A stretch of 64,000 nucleotides of DNA from Escherichia coli (GTDB lineage: Bacteria > Pseudomonadota > Gammaproteobacteria > Enterobacterales > Enterobacteriaceae). Under the pieces are notes generated by a model. It was not told where the DNA came from. It did no database searches and saw nothing but the letters and a program-made list of their open reading frames with translations. The position numbers and the translations under genes were made by a program. Positions 2,299-45,869 of this stretch are shown in pieces; within the stretch, counting starts at the first letter, position 1; each line of letters starts with the position of its first letter. The stretch is taken from NCBI RefSeq assembly GCF_044324785.1, contig NZ_CP172128.1; one strand, given 5' to 3'.

Positions 2299-3309
2299 TC
2301 AGGCGGAGGGAGCAAGCGTTGTCTTGCCAGGATGAAATTCCGGCTGCCAGAGTACTTGTAGCATTTCAGGTGAAACATTCGTGACCAGCTGGCGTATCAT
2401 GTCGGCAACCTGACGACCGACGCGATGTCGTGTTGACTGAAGAACTGCAGCCACATCCTGTTCAATAATACTGTCTTGCGGCAGACCATCATAAACCACA
2501 AGAGAGACGGCATCCTCTCCGGACAGATGACCGGATAACTGCAGCGACATGGCCGCGCCATCACCGATCAGGTCACTGTCGGTAATAATGGCCGTCGGGG
2601 GAAGCGGAAGTGACATTAACTCAGTCACTGCCTGGAAACCTGAGCGTCGGGTGGGAGAGACCCGGCGTAGCCAGGTCTCAGGCAGACCATGTTCACTCAG
2701 GGCATCGCGCCATCCCTGACGTCGTGCAGTGACATAGGTACGGGAGTTGTCCTCACTCAGCAGGGCAATTCGCTGATGGCCCAGGGCAATCAGGTGCTGT
2801 GTGGCCTGCCAGGTTCCTGCATGGTTATCAAAGTCAAACCAGGCACAGGGAAGACCGGACGGCACCTGACCGAGTGCCAGAAACGGAATACCGGCCTCCT
2901 GCAGGTGTGTAAGACGCGGGTCATTATCCAGCGTGTGCGCCACGATAAGGGCATCAACCCGGCGGCTTTCGACCAGACGCATATAGCTGTGGCTGTCAGC
3001 CCGTTCATCATCGGCTATCAGCAGTAAGTCAATATCATGGCGGGCCAGTTCCCGGCTGATACAACTGACCATATCCACAAACACACTACTGCTGAACAGT
3101 ACAGCATGTTCAGGGAAGACCAGGCCGACCGCATCGGTTTTACCGGTTTTGAGACGTCTTGCCAGGGTATTCGGGCGATAACCACGACGCCGAGCTTCCG
3201 CTTCTACACGTGCACGGGTCGAAGCGGAAACGTCCGAAAATCCGCCAAGCGCCCGGCTGACTGTGGTGACAGAGATCCCGAGTTCGGCGGCGATAGCCTT
3301 GAGTGACAT
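2299..3309 (-). CDS. rafR: LacI-family transcriptional repressor (raffinose repressor-like)
   Basis: 336-aa ORF; N-terminal HTH (LKAIAAELGISVTTVSRAL), periplasmic-binding-protein-like C-domain; adjacent to rafA. Confidence 0.75.
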   Translation of the reverse strand: MSLKAIAAELGISVTTVSRALGGFSDVSASTRARVEAEARRRGYRPNTLARRLKTGKTDAVGLVFPEHAVLFSSSVFVDMVSCISRELARHDIDLLLIADDERADSHSYMRLVESRRVDALIVAHTLDNDPRLTHLQEAGIPFLALGQVPSGLPCAWFDFDNHAGTWQATQHLIALGHQRIALLSEDNSRTYVTARRQGWRDALSEHGLPETWLRRVSPTRRSGFQAVTELMSLPLPPTAIITDSDLIGDGAAMSLQLSGHLSGEDAVSLVVYDGLPQDSIIEQDVAAVLQSTRHRVGRQVADMIRQLVTNVSPEMLQVLWQPEFHPGKTTLAPSA

Positions 3310-17192: not shown

Positions 17193-18523
17193 TAGACTGG
17201 CCCCCTGAATCTCCAGACAACCAATATCACTTAAATAAGTGATAGTCTTAATACTAGTTTTTAGACTAGTCATTGGAGAGCAGATGATTGATGTCTTAGG
17301 ACCGGAGAAACGCAGACGGCGTACTACACAGGAAAAGATCGCTATTGTTCAGCAGAGTTTTGAACCGGGAATGACGGTCTCCCTTGTTGCCCGGCAACAC
17401 GGTGTGGCAGCCAGCCAGTTATTTCTCTGGCGCAAGCAATACCAGGAGGGAAGTCTTACTGCTGTGGCCGCAGGAGAGCAGGTCGTTCCTGCCTCTGAAC
17501 TTGCTGCTGCCATGAAGCAGATTAAAGAACTCCAGCGCCTGCTCGGCAAAAAAACGATGGAAAATGAACTCCTTAAAGAAGCCGTTGAATACGGGCGTGC
17601 AAAAAAGTGGATAGCGCACGCGCCCTTATTGCCCGGGGATGGGGAGTAAGCTTAGTCAGCCGTTGTCTCCGGGTGTCGCGTGCGCAGTTGCACGTAATTC
17701 TCAGACGAACCGATGACTGGAAAGATGGTCGCCGCAGCCGTCACTCAGATGATACGGATGTGCTTCTCCGTATACACCATGTTATCGGAGAGCTGCCCAC
17801 GTATGGTTATCGTCGGGTATGGGCGCTGCTTCGCAGACAGGCCGAACTTGATGGTATGCCTGCGATCAATGCCAAACGTGTTTACCGGATCATGCGCCAG
17901 AATGCGCTGTTGCTTGAGCGAAAAACCGCTGTACCGCCATCGAAACGGGCACATACTGGCAAAGTGGCCGTGAAAGAAAGCAATCAACGATGGTGCTCTG
18001 ACGGGTTCGAGTTCCGCTGTGATAACGGAGAAAAACTGCGAGTCACGTTCGCGCTGGACTGCTGTGACCGTGAGGCACTGCACTGGGCAGTCACTACGGG
18101 CGGCTTCGACAGTGAAACAGTACAGGACGTCATGCTGGGAGCGGTGGAACGCCGCTTCGGCAACGAGCTTCCGGCGTCTCCAGTAGAGTGGCTGACGGAT
18201 AATGGTTCATGCTACCGGGCTAATGAAACACGGCAGTTTGCCCGGATGTTGGGGCTTGAACCGAAGAACACGGCGGTGCGGAGTCCGGAGAGTAACGGCA
18301 TAGCAGAGAGCTTCGTGAAAACGATAAAGCGTGACTACATCAGTATCATGCCTAAACCAGACGGGTTAACGGCAGCAAAGAACCTTGCAGAGGCGTTCGA
18401 GCATTATAACGAATGGCATCCGCATAGTGCACTGGGTTATCGCTCGCCACGGGAATATCTGCGGCAGCAGGCCAGTAATGGGTTAAGTGATAACAGGTGT
18501 CTGGAAATATAGGGGCAAATCCA
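17193..18523 (+). mobile_element. IS2 copy 1 (insC 17284-17649, insD 17607-18512)
   Basis: 1331 bp, IRL TAGACTGGCCCCCTGAATCTCCAGACAACC, right end ...GGGGCAAATCCA; 5-bp target duplication TTTTG on both sides. Confidence 0.9.
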
Positions 18524-31899: not shown

Positions 31900-33208
31900 T
31901 GAACCGCCCCGGGAATCCTGGAGACTAAACTCCCTGAGAAAGAGGTAAACAGAATGACTAAAAATACTCGTTTTTCCCCCGAAGTCCGTCAGAGGGCGAT
32001 TCGTATGGTTCTGGAAAGTCAGGGCGAATATGACTCACAGTGGGCGGCAATTTGTTCCATTGCCCCAAAGATTGGCTGTACACCGGAGACTCTGCGTGTC
32101 TGGGTACGCCAGCATGAGCGGGATACCGGAGGCGGTGATGGCGGGCTCACCACCGCTGAACGTCAGCGTCTGAAAGAGCTGGAACGTGAAAATCGTGAAC
32201 GCGCCGCAGTAACGATATCCTTCGCCAGGCTTCCGCTTATTTTGCGAAGGCGGAGTTCGACCGCCTCTGGAAAAAGTGATGCCACTGCTGGATAAGCTGC
32301 GTAAGCTGTACGGGGTCGGACGGGTATGCAGTGAACTACATATTGCCCCGTCAACGTATTACCACTGTCAGCAACAGCGACATCATCCTGATAAACGCAG
32401 TGCCCGTGCGCAGCGCGATGACTGGCTGAAGAAAGAGATACTGCGCGTATACGATGGGAATCATCAGGTATATGGTGTGCGTAAAGTCTGGCGTCAGTTG
32501 TTACGGGAAGGAATCAGGGTAGCCAGATGTACAGTGGCGCGCCTCATGGCGGTTATGGGACTTGCCGGTGTTCTCCGGGGTAAAAAGGTCCGCACTACCG
32601 TCAGCCGGAAAGCCGTTGCCGCAGGCGACCGCGTAAACCGTCAGTTTGTGGCAGAACGTCCTGACCAGTTGTGGGTGGCTGATTTTACTTACGTCAGCAC
32701 ATGGCAGGGGGTCGTCTATGTGGCGTTCATCATTGATGTGTTTGCCGGATACATCGTGGGGTGGCGGGTCTCATCGTCTATGGAAACGACATTCGTGCTG
32801 GATGCTCTGGAGCAGGCGTTATGGGCCCGTCGACCGTCCGGCACAGTCCATCACAGTGATAAAGGTTCTCAGTATGTATCGCTGGCCTACACACAGCGGC
32901 TTAAGGAAGCCGGATTACTGGCATCAACAGGAAGTACTGGTGACTCGTATGACAACGCGATGGCGGAGAGCATCAATGGCCTTTACAAAGCGGAGGTAAT
33001 ACACCGTAAGAGCTGGAAAAACCGGACAGAAGTGGAGCTGGCCACACTCACGTGGGTGGACTGGTATAACAATCGACGATTGCTGGAAAGGCTGGGCCAT
33101 ATCCCACCGGCAGAAGCAGAAAAAGCTTATTATGCTTCCATCGGAAACGATGATCTGGCAGCCTGAGTTCACAGATAAAACACTCTCCAGGAAACCCGGG
33201 GCGGTTCA
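31900..33208 (+). mobile_element. IS3-family insertion sequence (orfA 31954-32295, orfB 32276-33166)
   Basis: terminal inverted repeats TGAACCGCCCCGGGAATCCTGG / CCAGGAAACCCGGGGCGGTTCA; orfB with DDE-type transposase hallmarks; orfA/orfB overlap. Confidence 0.8.
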
Positions 33209-33556
33209 AACACCCTTTCTTCATCCATCCTGCGCGCTCCATCTGATAATGTTCTGACAGGTAAAAATCAAATTCTGTATGATTTTTGTGTTATCGATTT
33301 ATGATAATATCAGATATTTTTTCATTACTTATGATTAAAATCATATCTAATATGAATTTATGTGTATTGCTTAATTATCATATCACCTGCCCGTTTCCCG
33401 CCGCGCAGATCCGGTTTCCGGCTGAAGTGGATCCAGACCTGATTTGTTGCTGAGTATCGGTAAAAGTGCGGCTTATAAGCTATTCTGAAACATGGCAACT
33501 GAATCTGGGCTGTATAATTCCGGCAAGTGTCATCTGTATTTAAAGGACGTGTGAGT

Positions 33557-34763: not shown

Positions 34764-36094
34764 TAGACTGGCCCCCTGAATCTCCAGACAACCAATATCA
34801 CTTAAATAAGTGATAGTCTTAATACTAGTTTTTAGACTAGTCATTGGAGAGCAGATGATTGATGTCTTAGGACCGGAGAAACGCAGACGGCGTACTACAC
34901 AGGAAAAGATCGCTATTGTTCAGCAGAGTTTTGAACCGGGAATGACGGTCTCCCTTGTTGCCCGGCAACACGGTGTGGCAGCCAGCCAGTTATTTCTCTG
35001 GCGCAAGCAATACCAGGAGGGAAGTCTTACTGCTGTGGCCGCAGGAGAGCAGGTCGTTCCTGCCTCTGAACTTGCTGCTGCCATGAAGCAGATTAAAGAA
35101 CTCCAGCGCCTGCTCGGCAAAAAAACGATGGAAAATGAACTCCTTAAAGAAGCCGTTGAATACGGGCGTGCAAAAAAGTGGATAGCGCACGCGCCCTTAT
35201 TGCCCGGGGATGGGGAGTAAGCTTAGTCAGCCGTTGTCTCCGGGTGTCGCGTGCGCAGTTGCACGTAATTCTCAGACGAACCGATGACTGGAAAGATGGT
35301 CGCCGCAGCCGTCACTCAGATGATACGGATGTGCTTCTCCGTATACACCATGTTATCGGAGAGCTGCCCACGTATGGTTATCGTCGGGTATGGGCGCTGC
35401 TTCGCAGACAGGCCGAACTTGATGGTATGCCTGCGATCAATGCCAAACGTGTTTACCGGATCATGCGCCAGAATGCGCTGTTGCTTGAGCGAAAAACCGC
35501 TGTACCGCCATCGAAACGGGCACATACTGGCAAAGTGGCCGTGAAAGAAAGCAATCAACGATGGTGCTCTGACGGGTTCGAGTTCCGCTGTGATAACGGA
35601 GAAAAACTGCGAGTCACGTTCGCGCTGGACTGCTGTGACCGTGAGGCACTGCACTGGGCAGTCACTACGGGCGGCTTCGACAGTGAAACAGTACAGGACG
35701 TCATGCTGGGAGCGGTGGAACGCCGCTTCGGCAACGAGCTTCCGGCGTCTCCAGTAGAGTGGCTGACGGATAATGGTTCATGCTACCGGGCTAATGAAAC
35801 ACGGCAGTTTGCCCGGATGTTGGGGCTTGAACCGAAGAACACGGCGGTGCGGAGTCCGGAGAGTAACGGCATAGCAGAGAGCTTCGTGAAAACGATAAAG
35901 CGTGACTACATCAGTATCATGCCTAAACCAGACGGGTTAACGGCAGCAAAGAACCTTGCAGAGGCGTTCGAGCATTATAACGAATGGCATCCGCATAGTG
36001 CACTGGGTTATCGCTCGCCACGGGAATATCTGCGGCAGCAGGCCAGTAATGGGTTAAGTGATAACAGGTGTCTGGAAATATAGGGGCAAATCCA
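34764..36094 (+). mobile_element. IS2 copy 2
   Basis: ORFs identical to copy 1; 5-bp target duplication CCTGT on both sides. Confidence 0.9.
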
Positions 36095-37248: not shown

Positions 37249-38058
37249 ATGTCAGGCTCCGTTATACACAGCCAGTCTGCAGCCATGGTACCGGCAGTGT
37301 ATTCTGCCGGACAGTCTGCACAACTTCCTGTTGCCATTGATTATCCGGCAGCTCTGGCACTCCGCCAGATGTCGATGGTTCATGATGAACTGCCGAAATA
37401 TCTGCTGGCTCCCGAGGTGAGTGCCCTGCTTCATTATGTCCCGGATCTGCGCCGCAAGATGCTGCTGGCCACTCTGTGGAACACCGGCGCGCGTATTAAT
37501 GAAGCACTAGCGCTGACGCGGGGGGATTTTTCGCTCACGCCTCCGTATCCGTTTGTGCAGCTGGCCACTCTGAAGCAGCGGACAGAAAAAGCCGCCAGGA
37601 GGGCAGGAAGGATGCCCGCCGGTCAGCAGACTCACCGTCTGGTTCCGCTCTCCGACGCCTGGTACGTCAGCCAGCTGCAGACGATGGTGGCCACACTGAA
37701 AATCCCCATGGAACGGCGTAATAAACGAACAGGCAGGACAGAGAAAGCGCGGATCTGGGAAGTGACGGACAGAACGGTCAGGACCTGGATTGGGGAGGCG
37801 GTTGCCGCCGCTGCTGCTGACGGTGTGACGTTCTCTGTTCCGGTCACACCACATACGTTCCGCCATTCCTATGCGATGCACATGCTGTATGCCGGTATAC
37901 CGCTGAAAGTTCTGCAAAGCCTGATGGGACATAAGTCCATCAGTTCAACGGAAGTCTACACGAAGGTTTTTGCGCTGGATGTGGCTGCCCGGCACCGGGT
38001 GCAGTTTGCGATGCCTGAGTCCGATGCGGTCACAATGCTGAAAAACAGACATGTATAA
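37249..38058 (+). CDS. resD: ResD tyrosine site-specific recombinase (F-plasmid D protein type)
   Basis: 269 aa; tyrosine recombinase C-terminal motifs (HTFRHSYAMHML, GHKSISSTEVYTKV); immediately downstream of ccdB as in F. Confidence 0.8.
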   Translation: MSGSVIHSQSAAMVPAVYSAGQSAQLPVAIDYPAALALRQMSMVHDELPKYLLAPEVSALLHYVPDLRRKMLLATLWNTGARINEALALTRGDFSLTPPYPFVQLATLKQRTEKAARRAGRMPAGQQTHRLVPLSDAWYVSQLQTMVATLKIPMERRNKRTGRTEKARIWEVTDRTVRTWIGEAVAAAAADGVTFSVPVTPHTFRHSYAMHMLYAGIPLKVLQSLMGHKSISSTEVYTKVFALDVAARHRVQFAMPESDAVTMLKNRHV

Positions 38059-38230
38059 TAAGTCACAATTATGAATTGTGATTTCTTCTATAAAAAAGAG
38101 ACCACTGCAATATGTGATCTCTTGTATTATTTCATAATTGTTAAAGCCACTTCACATTATGCTCACATTGTACGGATATATTCGTAATGTTTTTTTATAT
38201 CGAATGAACGACAGAAGTTGTGGAGATTTT

Positions 38231-38584
38231 ATGAAAGTAATTAGCATGAAATTTATTTTTATTTTAACGATTATTGCTCTTGCTGCTGTTTTTTTCTGGT
38301 CTGAAGATAAAGGTCCGGCATGCTATCAGGTCAGCGATGAACAGGCCAGAACGTTTGTAAAAAATGATTACCTGCAAAGAATGAAACGCTGGGACAACGA
38401 TGTACAACTTCTTGGTACAGAAATCCCGAAAATTACATGGGAAAAGATTGAGAGAAGTTTAACAGATGTTGAAGATGAAAAAACACTTCTTGTCCCATTT
38501 AAAGCTGAAGGCCCGGAGGGTAAGAGAATGTATTATGGCATGTACCATTGTGAGGAGGGATATGTTGAATATGCGAATGACTAA
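38231..38584 (+). CDS. cmi: colicin M immunity protein
   Basis: 117 aa with N-terminal membrane anchor; convergent with and adjacent to cma. Confidence 0.7.
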   Translation: MKVISMKFIFILTIIALAAVFFWSEDKGPACYQVSDEQARTFVKNDYLQRMKRWDNDVQLLGTEIPKITWEKIERSLTDVEDEKTLLVPFKAEGPEGKRMYYGMYHCEEGYVEYAND

Positions 38585-38633: not shown

Positions 38634-39449
38634 TTATCGCTTACCACTTTCTTTAATGTGAATTTCACCAGGAAGCAGTATCTGGTACTCTTTACCAGAA
38701 AACATCGCCCCGAGCCTTGTGAGCGACTCTCCGATAATGCCACGGTGAGTGCTGGCGTTAAAATCATATTTATCATCATATGAACGAACAACGCCATTGT
38801 AAATCCAGGAGCCATTGGCAGAGATAGTTAAAGTACCTTCTGTTTTCAGTGTGATATTACCAAGATATGCACCGGTAATAACATTATAATCACCAGTGGC
38901 ATGTGTGAACTTTGTAGAAACAGGGAATGTACCTACTACACCAGATTTTATAATGTCTTTTATCTGATTAATTTTCATAGGGGAAATTTTAAGACCAATG
39001 TTGGCGATATTAACGCTCCTTTCAGCGCCATTACCCCATAAATAGTGAGCAAGCGCCACAATTGGTGTAGTGACATTACCGCTCATTTGTTTCATATTCA
39101 TTGAGCGATAGTCATATTGACTTGGCGCTGGTTTTGCGAAGTGGTAAGCGTCATAAACGCTTATTCCAGGGTGAAGAACCAGATTTCGGTCGGCGTTACA
39201 GAAGTAACCAATATTTGTCGATATGATCTGCAATGTGAGAGGGTTGCTGGCCCCATGTTTTTTGATGTAATCCTCAAGTTGAGTTAAAGCCTGAAGACAC
39301 ATGTTTGGACTCTGGAAAAAACTATAAACAACCTGGACTAAAAGAGGGCCAGCACCAGGCACATGTGGTGCTGAAAGAGAAAATGCACCATTGCCATAAC
39401 TTGGTAAGTTAGTTGATGGTGATGGTGCATGAACAGTTAAGGTTTCCAT
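38634..39449 (-). CDS. cma: colicin M (lipid II-cleaving bacteriocin)
   Basis: 271 aa from METLTVHAPSPSTNLPSYGNGAFSL.. to ..EIHIKESGKR matches colicin M. Confidence 0.85.
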   Translation of the reverse strand: METLTVHAPSPSTNLPSYGNGAFSLSAPHVPGAGPLLVQVVYSFFQSPNMCLQALTQLEDYIKKHGASNPLTLQIISTNIGYFCNADRNLVLHPGISVYDAYHFAKPAPSQYDYRSMNMKQMSGNVTTPIVALAHYLWGNGAERSVNIANIGLKISPMKINQIKDIIKSGVVGTFPVSTKFTHATGDYNVITGAYLGNITLKTEGTLTISANGSWIYNGVVRSYDDKYDFNASTHRGIIGESLTRLGAMFSGKEYQILLPGEIHIKESGKR

Positions 39450-42622: not shown

Positions 42623-42759
42623 GATCAAAAATTACGCCGCTGTGTTTTCTCTGTCAAGACTGTGGATTTCAATTTTTGTGAAAACGATCAAAAAACAGGC
42701 ACTCACACCACGTGCTATTCTCGCCTGATACCACAAAAAACTGCACAAGCATTACTGGT

Positions 42760-43222
42760 CAGGACGGCAGGAAGAATGCCCGCCGGCCAGCAGACTCACC
42801 GGCTGGTTCCGCTCTCGGACTCCTGGTACGTCAGCCAGCTGCAGACGATAGTGGCCACACTGAAAATCCCCATGGAACGGCGTAATAAACGAACAGGCAG
42901 GACAGAGAAAGCGCGGATCTGGGAAGTGACGGACAGAACGGTCAGTACCTGGATTGGGGAAGCGGTTGCCGCCGCTGCCGCTGATGGTGTGACGTTCTCT
43001 GCCCCGGTCACGCCACATACGTTCCGCCATTCCTATACGATGCACATGCTGTATGCCGGTATACCGCTGAAGGTCCTGCAGAGCCTGATGGGGCATAAGT
43101 CCATCAGCTCAACGGAAGTCTACACGAAGGTGTTTGCGCTGGATGTGGCTGCCCGGCACCGGGTGCAGTTTTCGATGCCTGAGTCCGATGCGGTCACAAT
43201 GCTGAAAAACAGACACGCATAA
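42760..43222 (+). pseudogene. resD paralog, 3' fragment (~155 codons)
   Basis: ~90% identical to 37590-38058 including downstream 70 bp; 5' part absent. Confidence 0.65.
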
Positions 43223-43358
43223 TTCATAAATCATAATTATGAATTGTGATTTATTCTGTAAAAAAGAGACCACTGCAATATGTGATCTCTTGTATGCAAG
43301 GGGGCTTAAACAGTATGAATTCACAAGTGTGATTTCATAAGTAATAACTTTTTGATTA

Positions 43359-43634
43359 TTATGTTAGTGTTTTTAAGTATTGCTCAAGGGCTACTCTGAC
43401 GATGGCACTTACATTTTTTGGATCTTTACCATTGCGTTTATTCCTCAATGCCAGATCTTCTATTGTGACAAGCATGCTTTCACCAAGAGAGATTGTCGTC
43501 CGACATTGTTTTTCTGGTTCGGTTTTTTCCGGCGCGCCGTATGGTTTATCCGCAAGGCGCTGAGCCAGAGCCTCTGCTTGTTCTACCGTAACTGCAGCTC
43601 TGTTTAATGCTTGCTGGCTGGGTTTCTTCACCAT
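43359..43634 (-). CDS. ParG-like RHH partition/centromere-binding protein
   Basis: 91 aa with C-terminal ribbon-helix-helix-like segment; immediately downstream of ParA-type ATPase. Confidence 0.5.
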   Translation of the reverse strand: MVKKPSQQALNRAAVTVEQAEALAQRLADKPYGAPEKTEPEKQCRTTISLGESMLVTIEDLALRNKRNGKDPKNVSAIVRVALEQYLKTLT

Positions 43635-44272
43635 GGGCCAAATACCTCATTCATTAAATGTTCAATTTCTGCTTTGGCTGCTGTATTGTTCGTTTCTACT
43701 ACACCGGTGCCGTTGCTCATGCAATCGCGATAGACTTTTCTGAAACAAATAACTGAATCCAGAACTTGAATTGTTGGGAATTCTTCAAGATATTCAAGGA
43801 ATTCTTTTCTCTCATTTCCCCTCAAAACCGGATTGGTTGTTGCCATACTTTGTAAACAATAAACCTTAAGTTCCGGGTTAAGGTTACGCATTGCGTCTAT
43901 CTGTTGTTCTAGTTCTGTAAGAGTATCCAGGTCTGGTTGAGAACACTGTAGTGGCGCAATTATTTGATGTGCGACAACTCCACTCGTTATGAATTCCTTT
44001 GAGTTTCTTCCTGCGACATCCACTATTACATCATCGAACTTTTCATTCAGAGCCTGTAGTGTTTGTGTCAGATTATCAAATTTCTCAACAAGAGTTATTG
44101 CTGGTAAAAGTCCTGCAGCTTCTCGTTCCGCATGATGTTTTGCGGCTGTTCGTTGTAGATCTCCGTTTAACAGGCAGACTTCCCTTCCTTTATTTGCGAG
44201 AGCAATAGCCAGGTTTGATGCAATGGTAGTTTTCCCTGAACCACCTTTGTTCCCACCAACTACAGTAATCAT
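43628..44272 (-). CDS. small ParA/ParF-type partition ATPase
   Basis: 214 aa, deviant Walker A GGNKGGSGKTT; type Ib size. Confidence 0.7.
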   Translation of the reverse strand: MITVVGGNKGGSGKTTIASNLAIALANKGREVCLLNGDLQRTAAKHHAEREAAGLLPAITLVEKFDNLTQTLQALNEKFDDVIVDVAGRNSKEFITSGVVAHQIIAPLQCSQPDLDTLTELEQQIDAMRNLNPELKVYCLQSMATTNPVLRGNERKEFLEYLEEFPTIQVLDSVICFRKVYRDCMSNGTGVVETNNTAAKAEIEHLMNEVFGPW

Positions 44273-44500
44273 TGCAACCTCATAAATGTGATGTGTGAAG
44301 TATGATGATATTTTGACACGGTAACCTGAGGTGTCAATATGCGTTCATATTTATGAAGTATGAAACATGAAGTGTTTCATATGATGTAATAAATAATACT
44401 TGTGTTTTGTGATTTCATAACTATGATAGTACTCAAATTGAGTATTACCTTGCAACCAGAAACAGTGATTTACTCAGATTGAGTATTTAAGGGGCTATAG
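44273..44500. promoter_or_regulatory. shared divergent promoter / candidate centromere region
   Basis: AT-rich; direct repeats ACTCA(A/G)ATTGAGTATT x2 and TGAAGTATGA-type repeats between the two divergent partition operons. Confidence 0.45.
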
Positions 44501-45472
44501 ATGAACGTATACTGCGATGATGGTTCAACAACAATCAAGTTGGCATGGAATGACAATGGGAAAATCAGTAAGTCGTTGTCGCAAAACTCATTTCGTCATG
44601 GATGGAAGGTTGACGGGTTAGGGATTCGCCAGACATTTAACTATGAACTGGATGGTAAAAAATACACGTATGATGAAGTTAGCAACCAATCTATTCTTAC
44701 GACTCATATTGAGTATCAATATACGGATGTTAACCTGTTAGCTGTGCATCACGCTTTACTGAATAGTGGATTAGTGCCTCAGCCTGTATCATTGACTGTG
44801 ACTTTGCCTATCAGTGAGTTCTACACGAAAGAGTGTCAAAAAAATGAACTCAACATTCAGCGTAAAATTGAGAATTTAATGAGGCCGATTCGTCTTAATA
44901 AAGGCGATGTTTTCACCATTGAACACGTTGATGTGATGCCTGAATCATTGCCAGCTGTGTTTTCTCGTCTGGTCATGGATAAAGTTGGTCAGTTCGAAAA
45001 ATCGCTGGTAGTTGATATTGGCGGCACTACGCTTGATGTTGGTGTTATCGTTGGTCAATTTGACTCTGTAAGTGCCATTCATGGTAATTCTGGCATTGGT
45101 GTGTCTTCAGTTACGAAAGCTGCAATGAGTGCATTGCGCATGGCATCCAGTGATACCAGTTTCCTCGTTGCAGATGAATTGATTAAACGTCGTAATGACC
45201 CGGACTTTGTTCGGCAGGTTATAAATGACGAAACAAAAACTGATCTGGTCCTTAATACCATTGAGGGGGCTATTGCCAGTCTGGGGGAGCAAGTAGTCAA
45301 TGAGCTCGGTGATTTTCATCATGTGAATCGTGTTTATGTTGTCGGTGGTGGGGCACCGTTGATCTATGATTCGATAAAAACGGCATGGCACCATCTTGGG
45401 CAAAAAGTAGTGATGATGGAGTCGCCACAGACAGCACTGGTTGAAGCTATCGCGGCTTTCAAAGAGGAGTAA
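44501..45472 (+). CDS. stbA: StbA/ParM actin-like partition ATPase
   Basis: 323 aa, ParM-like N-terminus (VYCDDGSTTIKLAW) and actin-fold phosphate motifs (DIGGTTLD). Confidence 0.8.
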   Translation: MNVYCDDGSTTIKLAWNDNGKISKSLSQNSFRHGWKVDGLGIRQTFNYELDGKKYTYDEVSNQSILTTHIEYQYTDVNLLAVHHALLNSGLVPQPVSLTVTLPISEFYTKECQKNELNIQRKIENLMRPIRLNKGDVFTIEHVDVMPESLPAVFSRLVMDKVGQFEKSLVVDIGGTTLDVGVIVGQFDSVSAIHGNSGIGVSSVTKAAMSALRMASSDTSFLVADELIKRRNDPDFVRQVINDETKTDLVLNTIEGAIASLGEQVVNELGDFHHVNRVYVVGGGAPLIYDSIKTAWHHLGQKVVMMESPQTALVEAIAAFKEE

Positions 45473-45476
45473 TATT

Positions 45477-45869
45477 GTGGACGATGAACGGAAAAGGAAA
45501 AAATTCACACTTTATCTGCATCCGGAAAAAGCTGCAGACTTTCAAACTTTGGAAGCGATAGAGTCCGTTCCGCGTTCTGAGCGTGGTGAGCTGTTCCGGA
45601 ATGCATTTATTTCTGGAATGGCGTTACACCAACTTGATCCTCGCCTGCCTGTATTGCTGACTGCCATTTTGAGCGAGGAGTTTTCAGCAGATCAGGTTGT
45701 AACCTTACTCAGTCAGACGACTGGATGGAAGCCTTCTCAGGCCGATATCAGAGCTGTGTTGACTGAACTCGGTGCTTCGCAATCTGCTGAAAAAATGCCT
45801 CCTTCTGCTACTGATTCGGTGCAGGAGGCAATGAATGATGTGCGCCTTAAAATGCAAAAATTATTCTGA
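45477..45869 (+). CDS. stbB: StbB/ParR-like partition adaptor
   Basis: small ORF after stbA; GTG start at 45477 proposed (ORF-track ATG at 45441 overlaps stbA). Confidence 0.55.
   Translation: MDDERKRKKFTLYLHPEKAADFQTLEAIESVPRSERGELFRNAFISGMALHQLDPRLPVLLTAILSEEFSADQVVTLLSQTTGWKPSQADIRAVLTELGASQSAEKMPPSATDSVQEAMNDVRLKMQKLF

Follow-up and report, generated by a model that had tools for sequence, protein, structure and literature searches.

The double par locus, first found on the Escherichia coli plasmid pB171, combines two plasmid-segregation machines which are transcribed outward from a common, repeat-filled control region, and the pB171 locus is reportedly the subject of papers by Ebersbach and Gerdes (PNAS, 2001) and Ringgaard et al. 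(JBC, 2007). Its par1 system comprises ParMR and its par2 system ParAB, with the parC1 region common to both. ParM filament formation and ParR/parC-dependent plasmid pushing are established for R1 and pB171-family proteins, while pB171 par2 underlies much of what is known on ParA-driven plasmid positioning. In the account given in PMC11950199, par1 and par2 of pB171 are divergently transcribed and influence each other's expression, and PMC6519299 refers to a single regulatory region common to adjacent par loci. PMC4270457 describes site-specific binding of parC by ParB, and positioning of plasmids over the nucleoid by par2.

Here we describe a region within a 64 kb stretch of E. coli DNA (64,000 nt, hereafter the window), in which the pB171-type double partition locus is, with a probability of about 0.93, present as an intact copy, located on an IncK2/Z-like conjugative plasmid that also has ccd, vapBC and relE systems. 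It resembles the pB171 locus in its four proteins, with an identical ParA and a 98% identical ParR, in its divergent layout around a shared region of ~200–230 bp, in the two ParR repeats 5′ of parM, and in the ParB repeat arrays on either side of parAB, whereas the host replicon of pB171 is an F-like EPEC virulence plasmid and the present one belongs to the I-complex. The DNA match to pB171 was read indirectly, via the proteins and the related EPEC plasmid pMAR2 (98.7%), from which the present locus differs by few point differences (~1.3%); in parC1, 7/228 positions differ, one of them in ParR box 1 (44431). The double par locus is already known and very common, and an earlier sequence-only reading of this region as two divergent partition systems is therefore supported but not new.

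Gene content and protein identities

Four intact genes flank an intergenic region of exactly 228 bp, as that reading had proposed, and the open reading frames and Pfam searches with all four proteins bear this out:

parA (par2), 43628-44272, minus strand: 214-aa deviant Walker-A ATPase, with NKGGSGKT at residues 8-15
parB (par2), 43359-43634, minus strand: 91-aa protein with a Pfam RHH_1 domain, predicted ribbon-helix-helix (RHH) centromere-binding protein
parC1, 44273-44500, unstranded: 228-bp shared parA-parM region with both predicted promoters, ParB heptads and ParR boxes
parM (par1), 44501-45472, plus strand: 323-aa actin-like ATPase with Pfam StbA_N and ParM C-terminal domains
parR/stbB (par1), 45477-45869, plus strand: 130-aa protein with a Pfam Plasmid_stab_B domain (1e-29), predicted RHH centromere-binding adaptor

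The ParA protein has AAA_31/MipZ/CbiA Pfam domains and, like the ATPases of type Ib systems, is small and lacks an N-terminal HTH domain. Its sequence is 100% identical to UniRef100 Q0H055, named 'pB171 ParA' in PMC13245405, and the same accession (WP_000633911.1) is also encoded by pMAR2. The stop codon of parA and the start codon of parB overlap by 7 nt, and a small RHH protein encoded directly 3′ of parA in one operon is again characteristic of type Ib; the RHH_1 score was 21.7 bits (cut-off 20.5), with 98.9% identity to the common plasmid variant of ParB. The ParB of pB171 is listed as an RHH ParB in PMC2441792.

The par1 proteins have the properties of a type II system, with an actin-fold ATPase (StbA_N 9e-65, ParM C-terminal domain 4e-44; 260 bits and E=2e-76 against R1 ParM structures, 1MWK) and an adaptor with an N-terminal RHH domain encoded 3′ of parM. 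This adaptor is identical at 127/130 positions (98%) to PDB 2JD3, given as the pB171 ParR structure in PMC3074162. A TTG at 45441 was rejected as parR start, as the ATG at 45477 (130 aa) matches both RefSeq and 2JD3. The identity of ParA to Q0H055 and the match of ParR to 2JD3 confirm that both pairs are true partition systems, of type Ib and type II, respectively. An Rfam scan did not detect any RNA family within the locus.

The shared region parC1 contains two unrelated repeat sets

The intergenic region had been called repeat-rich, and this was confirmed by comparison with the rest of the window and with randomised sequences. The motif TRTGAW is present 11 times (either strand) in 44273-44500, whereas 228 nt of the 64 kb contain 0.59 on average, and together with 43223-43358 this region forms the two TRTGAW-richest 228-nt windows of the 64 kb; the counts of parC1 and of the second site (parC2, see below) were reached by 0/2000 first-order Markov simulations. 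The other repeat set consists of 17-nt palindromic boxes positioned 41 bp apart, with the sequence TACTCA(A/G)ATTGAGTATT, which agree at 16/17 positions (44430-44446 and 44471-44487), a level equalled by 0/500 dinucleotide shuffles. The elements are arranged as follows:

ParB heptad cluster A, 44280-44307, unstranded: TCATAAA TGTGATG TGTGAAG TATGATG in a 7-nt register
P2 (predicted parAB promoter), 44310-44337, minus strand: -35 TTGACA (44337-44332), 16-nt spacer, TG-extended -10 CAAAAT (44315-44310)
ParB heptad cluster B, 44344-44428, unstranded: ~12 7-bp units (8 strict matches), oriented both ways
P1 candidate (parMR promoter), 44400-44427, plus strand: TTGTGT, 16 nt, TATGAT, within heptad cluster B
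ParR box 1 (predicted), 44430-44446, unstranded: TACTCAAATTGAGTATT, a 15-nt palindrome containing the 10-bp repeat ATTGAGTATT
ParR box 2 (predicted), 44471-44487, unstranded: TACTCAGATTGAGTATT, 41 bp from box 1 and 14 nt 5′ of the parM ATG

Since two unrelated repeat sets coexist in 44273-44500, the correct one of the two alternatives raised earlier is that this short region accommodates both centromeres. Heptad cluster A is almost invariant among four diverged loci and spans the predicted parA transcript start. The length of heptad cluster B differs among relatives by exactly 7 or 14 nt, which corresponds to whole units.

P2 matches the consensus at 10/12 positions, and its -35 TTGAC and the -10 pattern xAxAAT, in contrast to the spacer sequence, are retained in the compared loci L002-L004. 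The P1 candidate ends 2 nt before ParR box 1, and its hexamers and spacing are invariant among the four diverged loci; the hexamers are weak (TTGTGT) and the match falls under the threshold of the scan tool, so that the position of P1, like the start sites of P1 and P2, is a prediction from sequence features. Two other possible parM promoters were considered. A plus-strand TTGACA at 44314-44319 (the left arm of TTGACAC/GTGTCAA) was rejected as -35 sequence because it is not conserved in L002-L004, while its complement forms the conserved P2 -10. Serratia and Klebsiella relatives have a promoter in the interval separating the ParR boxes, but in the pB171-type loci no acceptable hexamers were found there. 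Repeated ParR sites 5′ of parM are a feature of type II systems, and their overlap with the promoter is probable from the location of the P1 candidate.

Distribution and conservation of the paired systems

The full locus is present in 734/5426 complete E. coli genomes (13.5%) and in 982 PLSDB plasmids, the latter in agreement with the figure of 971 that PMC13245405 gives for 'RHH-ParB + type II' plasmids. The same divergent locus, including boxes, heptads and promoter hexamers, was found in Enterobacter, Citrobacter, Leclercia, Hafnia and Photorhabdus, in relatives with 71–85% ParB or 75–80% ParM identity. The pairing of the two systems is thus kept through 20–30% protein divergence in several genera, the two ParR boxes are kept in all relatives examined, and the four genes of the present locus are all intact and visibly under purifying selection. 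This argues against an alternative which we consider unlikely, namely that a single system serves inheritance while the other, most likely par1/ParMR, persists through linkage as a redundant passenger whose boxes function mainly as operators. Such an arrangement would be in line with the hierarchy of co-resident systems that PMC13245405 and PMC6519299 report for plasmids such as SCP1 and pINV, with the occurrence of the ParAB module alone in Yersinia and Pseudomonas plasmids, and with one Leclercia plasmid without an annotated parM CDS, where parR and parA are separated by an IS3-family element and parAB is intact. We favour two contributing systems, and plasmids with this locus should be counted as carrying two partition systems.

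A second par2 site downstream of parB

The sequence-only reading missed the second par2 centromere, parC2, which lies outside its coordinates:

parC2, 43223-43358, unstranded: second par2 cis site, bounded by the stop codons of a truncated integrase ORF and of parB
terminator-like hairpin with U-run, 43258-43291, minus strand: in the middle of parC2, putatively ending the parAB transcript
IHF consensus match WATCAANNNNTTR (AATCAAAAAGTTA), 43345-43357, minus strand: exact match, possible IHF site

The 9 TRTGAW/WTCAYA matches of parC2, the second-richest 228-nt window of the 64 kb, form heptads in a distal (43223-43257) and a proximal cluster (43314-43348), and the proximal cluster is retained 3′ of parB in Enterobacter, Citrobacter, Leclercia and Yersinia loci. 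Short-repeat arrays both upstream and downstream of parAB are a property of type Ib loci, and the heptads flanking parAB on both sides match the published parC1/parC2 layout, as the par2 constructs of PMC4270457 are given as parC1+ parA parB parC2+. The hairpin between the clusters has a 10-bp stem (-13.7 kcal/mol, z = -3.3 compared with shuffles) followed by UUUUUU, and relatives have other G+C-rich hairpins at the equivalent position, while the IHF match is the sole exact one within 43200-44520.

It is very unlikely that these repeats are not centromeres but iterons of an origin, or recombination sites used by the adjacent tyrosine recombinase. The distal part of parC2 (43223-43295), in which a 13-nt inverted repeat is interrupted by 3 nt, occurs together with the integrase 3′ end in ~580 E. 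coli genomes without par genes. Against this reading, no rep gene is adjacent, the hexamer recurs in its 7-bp register on either side of parAB and in loci without an integrase nearby, and three clusters, the two of parC1 and the proximal one of parC2, track parAB and not the integrase. The alternative concerns at most the distal 40 nt of parC2. Both parC1 and parC2 should be considered incompatibility determinants. Elsewhere in the window, positions 38015-38242 contain a partial duplicate of parC2 (the orphan copy at about 38060-38127), a possible further ParB site, and the TRTGAW-rich windows 33151-33378 and 38754-38981 lack the 7-bp register and were taken as AT-rich chance occurrences.

Proposed functioning of the two systems

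For par2, ParB dimers would bind the 7-bp-spaced TRTGAW units cooperatively via their RHH domains, both at the two parC1 clusters flanking P2 and at parC2 3′ of parB. ParA-ATP is expected to bind the nucleoid non-specifically, and stimulation of its ATPase by ParB/parC complexes would generate ParA gradients that space plasmid copies evenly over the nucleoid. The repeat binding by ParB, stimulation of ParA and plasmid stabilisation are known for identical or near-identical pB171 proteins (PMC4270457), and would by analogy apply here. For par1, ParR may bind the two boxes directly 5′ of parM, with the ParR/DNA complex capping actin-like ParM-ATP filaments, which, elongating between sister plasmids, would drive these apart; for the present copy, filaments and pushing are extrapolated from the R1 and pB171-family literature.

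Both ParB and ParR probably repress their own promoter, as the start site of P2, predicted at about 44303 on the minus strand, would be overlaid by ParB heptads, and that of P1, predicted at about 44434 on the plus strand, lies at ParR box 1. Both hexamers of the P1 candidate, -35 and -10, lie within ParB heptad cluster B, and ParB should therefore repress parMR too; such an effect of ParB on parMR corresponds to what has been published as 'regulatory cross-talk'. Cross-regulation had been raised as a possibility from the arrangement of the genes, and is supported by the mutual expression effects of par1 and par2 given in PMC11950199. Binding, partition activity and cross-repression are here all transferred from the literature on the same proteins.

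A ParR-box-like palindrome inside parM

A further palindrome was detected within the parM coding sequence, matching 9/10 positions of the 10-bp repeat:

candidate third ParR box, 44702-44718, unstranded: ACTCATATTGAGTATCA, palindrome within parM

In a comparison of 12 parM genes (67–98% aa identity), the longest stretch of unchanged nucleotides in the whole gene falls within this segment; of 159 synonymous codons just 7 are fully invariant, and 4 of these lie here. We tentatively suggest, at somewhat less than even odds, that the par1 centromere/operator is tripartite, consisting of the two upstream repeats and a box 230 bp downstream inside parM, with selection at the DNA level throughout the plasmid ParMR clade with ACTCA-N3-TGAGT boxes. 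The internal box could nucleate or close the ParR ring or helix via looping, or alternatively tune parMR expression. If bound by ParR, it would revise the minimal par1 centromere and make it easier to understand the assembly of a ParR ring or helix where there are only two repeats upstream. The literature searched, with the primary pB171 papers outside its scope, contained nothing relevant on an internal ParR site, which may already have been described; the candidate box is the one side observation here that may be new. A ParR-like box overlapping the parR stop, as seen in L002-L004, has no counterpart in the window.

Annotation of the par2 genes

Recognition of the locus is of practical use for annotation. 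In RefSeq, ParA appears under the labels 'AAA family ATPase' and 'division plane positioning ATPase MipZ', and ParB under 'hypothetical protein' and 'CopG family transcriptional regulator', although the locus is present in 13.5% of complete E. coli genomes. These labels would suit a ParA-like regulatory or positioning system without a centromere and without a function in partition, a reading effectively refuted already by the identity of the ATPase to pB171 ParA, among the best-studied type Ib partition ATPases, and by the specific repeat arrays on both sides of the operon, as in published type Ib loci.

Comparison with other partition systems

The par2 system resembles TP228 ParF/ParG/parH and pSM19035 delta/omega in its small Walker ATPase, which lacks an N-terminal DNA-binding domain, in an RHH centromere-binding protein that is likewise small and doubles as repressor, and in short degenerate repeats; the omega sites of pSM19035, too, consist of 7-bp units, arranged both as direct and as inverted repeats. 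Sequence similarity to these systems is only distant and the repeat sequence is different, with ParA matching ParF (4DZZ) at 34.6 bits (E=1e-7), and ParB matching neither ParG nor any other RHH structure in the PDB at E<=1. The earlier description as 'ParF/ParG-like' thus holds at the level of class but not by sequence, and par2, which shares the class and presumably the working of ParFG, does not belong to the ParF/ParG family.

The type II prototype, R1 parMRC, shares with par1 the actin-like ParM, the downstream RHH ParR and a promoter-overlapping centromere 5′ of parM, but has no divergent type I partner. According to PMC9426499, R1 requires arrays of 11-bp iterons, whereas par1 here has only two upstream boxes of a different palindromic sequence, plus possibly a third inside parM.

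Plasmids of the IncI1 pESBL type have a type Ib system and the same ParM/ParR clade at the same backbone position (integrase ... parMR), with a downstream octamer parS array sharing one intergenic region with the ParR boxes. Their ParAB is unrelated to par2, with GCAATCTTGC/TGCAGCAA-type repeats, and the two pairs are in tandem on the same strand and not divergent; the pESBL par locus (PMC7602700) was therefore rejected as the present system, being a different type Ib system. On pINV the two systems are ~90 kb apart, with no common control region in the description given by PMC6519299. Like the present plasmid, both R27 (IncHI1) and Shigella pINV combine one type I with one type II system, although these belong to other subfamilies.

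Two divergent partition systems of the pB171 type

Four intact genes were recovered by the ORF list and a Pfam scan in the two divergent pairs, and at the coordinates, that the sequence-only reading had proposed: par1 (parM and parR, type II) and par2 (parA and parB, type Ib).

Genes of the locus
43359-43634, minus strand: parB, 91-aa ribbon-helix-helix protein (Pfam RHH_1, score barely over the gathering cut-off)
43628-44272, minus strand: parA, 214-aa deviant Walker-A ATPase (AAA_31/MipZ/CbiA; NKGGSGKT at residues 8-15)
44501-45472, plus strand: parM/StbA, 323 aa (StbA_N, 9e-65, and ParM C-terminal domain)
45477-45869, plus strand: parR/StbB, 130 aa (Plasmid_stab_B, 1e-29)

The ParR start was placed at the ATG at 45477 (130 aa), and an upstream TTG was rejected, since both the RefSeq and the crystallised protein begin at this ATG. 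The divergent parA and parM ATG codons are exactly 228 bp apart (44273-44500, the shared intergenic region parC1), and both gene identity and cis-architecture can be read directly from the locus.

ParR is identical to PDB 2JD3, the ParR of pB171 (PMC3074162), at 127 of 130 positions over its full length, ParA exactly matches UniRef100 entry Q0H055, listed as 'pB171 ParA' (PMC13245405), and the EPEC plasmid pMAR2 shares the ParA accession WP_000633911.1 with this locus and is 98.7% identical to it across the entire 2.8-kb module. Because of these three matches, the locus is, by sequence, the 'double par locus' of pB171. In the literature, pB171 ParB belongs to the RHH proteins and has two parC sites (PMC2441792), and par2 test plasmids carry parC1+ parA parB parC2+, with site-specific parC binding by ParB (PMC4270457). 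The interpretation of two partition systems with one shared region is supported, and the finding as first written is a rediscovery of a classic, widespread locus, with nothing new in the locus itself; the sole element possibly worth an experiment is a box inside parM, described below.

Anatomy of parC1 and parC2

Two mutually unrelated repeat sets are present, both real and both above chance in simulations or shuffles. The first is the hexamer TRTGAW, in both orientations and in a 7-bp register (heptads, assigned to ParB), with 11 strict copies in 44273-44500 and nine in the 136 bp downstream of parB (43223-43358, the second par2 cis site, parC2), against a mean across the window of 0.59 per 228 nt. 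These are the top two 228-nt windows of the 64 kb, and either count was reached in 0 of 2000 Markov simulations. Intergenic lengths of diverged homologous loci differ by exactly 7 or 14 nt, inside the TRTGAW array, a difference of whole units. The second set comprises two near-palindromic 17-nt ParR boxes, TACTCA(A/G)ATTGAGTATT, at 44430 and 44471 (spacing 41 bp), which are identical at 16/17 positions, a value reached in 0 of 500 dinucleotide shuffles.

Cis elements of the locus
43223-43358: parC2, heptad clusters at 43223-43257 and 43314-43348
43264-43291 and U-run, minus (parAB) strand: terminator-like hairpin between the parC2 clusters (-13.7 kcal/mol, z = -3.3)
43345-43357: exact IHF-consensus match
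44280-44307: parC1 heptad cluster A
44337-44310, minus strand: predicted parAB promoter P2, -35 TTGACA (44337-44332), 16-nt spacer, TG-extended -10 CAAAAT (44315-44310), 10/12 consensus match
44344-44428: parC1 heptad cluster B
44400-44427, plus strand: best candidate for the parMR promoter P1, TTGTGT (44400-44405), 16 nt, TATGAT (44422-44427)
44430-44446 and 44471-44487: ParR boxes, with the parM Shine-Dalgarno sequence and ATG next downstream

The hairpin and the IHF match would serve as terminator and IHF site, respectively. The P2 hexamers are conserved in relatives and the spacer sequence is not. Candidate P1 matches the consensus weakly, yet both hexamers and the distance between them are unchanged across four diverged loci, and we infer that P1 lies at 44400-44427.

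The distal part of parC2 (43223-43295) contains ParB heptads and may also be a recombinase site; it includes an inverted repeat (13 nt, 3-nt gap) and matches ~580 complete E. coli genomes without par genes, always adjoining the integrase. The integrase 3′ end and the distal half of parC2 are directly duplicated at 94% identity (37596-38127 and 42760-43295), and between the two copies lie a colicin B/M immunity-and-toxin island, an IS1 copy and a fragment of a colicin gene. The duplication has left orphan ParB-type heptads at ~38060-38127, at a distance of 5 kb from the par locus, and the copy adjoining parB is part of a truncated integrase ORF (42662-43222).

Proposed mechanism and regulation

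Binding, partition and cross-repression are taken from the literature on the same proteins, according to which par2 would position plasmids via turnover of nucleoid-bound ParA-ATP, stimulated by ParB/parC, and par1 would push sister plasmids apart on ParM filaments, with ParR/parC complexes as caps. Both centromere-binding proteins would double as repressors of the back-to-back promoters, of which the predicted -35 hexamers are ~63 bp apart, and ParB would also act on P1. Ringgaard et al. 2007 reportedly described cooperative binding of ParR and ParB to unrelated parC1 repeat sets, repression of the non-cognate par1 promoter by ParB, mutual interference between the two promoters, and a part for IHF in par2 function. 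If P1 is correctly placed, its putative transcription start would lie inside ParR box 1, allowing autorepression by ParR, and its -35/-10 hexamers would lie inside cluster B, which would readily explain in structural terms why ParB represses par1, as published. Cluster A lies over the predicted P2 start, which would allow ParB autorepression.

A candidate third ParR box inside parM

A palindrome resembling the ParR box, GACTCATATTGAGTATC, is located inside parM (44701-44718) and matches 9/10 of the 10-bp repeat. A scan of one-genome-per-species contigs for every DNA sequence able to encode the peptide TTHIEYQY gave 23 loci, and codon use was compared among 12 parM genes of the plasmid type, whose pairwise aa identities are 0.67–0.98. 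Among 159 degenerate codon columns with an invariant residue, seven use a single codon in all 12 genes, and four of these seven are inside the box; the chance of such clustering anywhere in parM is ~1e-3 (hand estimate). The longest invariant nucleotide run in these genes, ATTGAGTATCA (44708-44718), adjoins ACTCA (44702-44706), and the sole variable base between them is the palindrome centre, where the upstream boxes vary too. In Aeromonas and some other genera, ParM homologues (52–56% identical), most of them on large contigs, have the same residues with varied codons, and no boxes were found in the upstream regions examined. The comparison indicates that selection acts on the DNA sequence itself, and the internal box is most simply a candidate additional ParR site.

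A further ParR-like box, TACTCAAATTGAGGC, overlaps the parR stop and extends into the umuC 3′ end in the Enterobacter, Citrobacter and Leclercia loci (L002-L004; e.g. L002 1746-1760), with no counterpart in the window.

Distribution and related double par loci

At ≥98.6% identity, 982 PLSDB plasmids contain the entire module, a count separate from ~2800 other PLSDB matches that cover just the flanking umuC and integrase. Among 5426 complete E. coli genomes, 734 have the module; these counts agree with the 971 'RHH-ParB + type II' plasmids reported (PMC13245405). Enterobacter, Citrobacter and Leclercia plasmids share the divergent layout and the flanking integrase and umuDC (ParB 85, 80 and 71% identical), and diverged versions occur on Hafnia and Photorhabdus contigs (ParM 75–76% identical). 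More distant ParAB homologues stand alone, without ParMR, in Yersinia and Pseudomonas plasmids, and the ParAB-ParMR pairing is, on this distribution, old but secondary. The Yersinia frederiksenii plasmid NZ_MT039225.1 (L005) has such a lone pair (ParB/ParA 58% identical), preceded at 3170-3290 by another heptad, TACTTAA, repeated perfectly in tandem ~18 times, with TATGAA-type heptads downstream of parB; in this array the 7-bp unit length was kept and the unit sequence changed.

In IncI1-type plasmids, ParMR of the same clade is preceded in tandem by an unrelated type Ib system, the pESBL ParAB (PMC7602700), whose repeats are of the GCAATCTTGC type, whereas the pairs diverge here. This was seen in L009 (IncI1/B/O plasmid NZ_CP035469.1, 1255-3871) and in L014, L022, L023, L025 and L031, with pESBL-type ParAB directly upstream of parMR and GCAATCTTGC/TGCAGCAA repeats. 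As in the window, one shared intergenic region (~240 bp) holds both the downstream parS array and the ParR boxes, and the arrangement represents a second type of fused double par locus.

Other features of the window

The near-identical plasmid pLH10-b-1-A (IncK2/Z; 99.98% outside the insertions) lacks two ~1.3-kb insertions of the window (17196-18523 and 34764-36094), both matching an IS3-family element at 73% identity, and an ALIL frameshift pseudoknot is located at 32234-32350 (Rfam RF01497, 108 bits). Region 1-41000 carries cargo characteristic of virulence plasmids from avian and extraintestinal E. coli, with raffinose-type sugar genes, an iron ABC transporter, an arcC/fdrA cluster and colicin M/B genes; since it also includes relE/parE, vapBC and ccdAB toxin-antitoxin pairs, plasmid maintenance is highly redundant.
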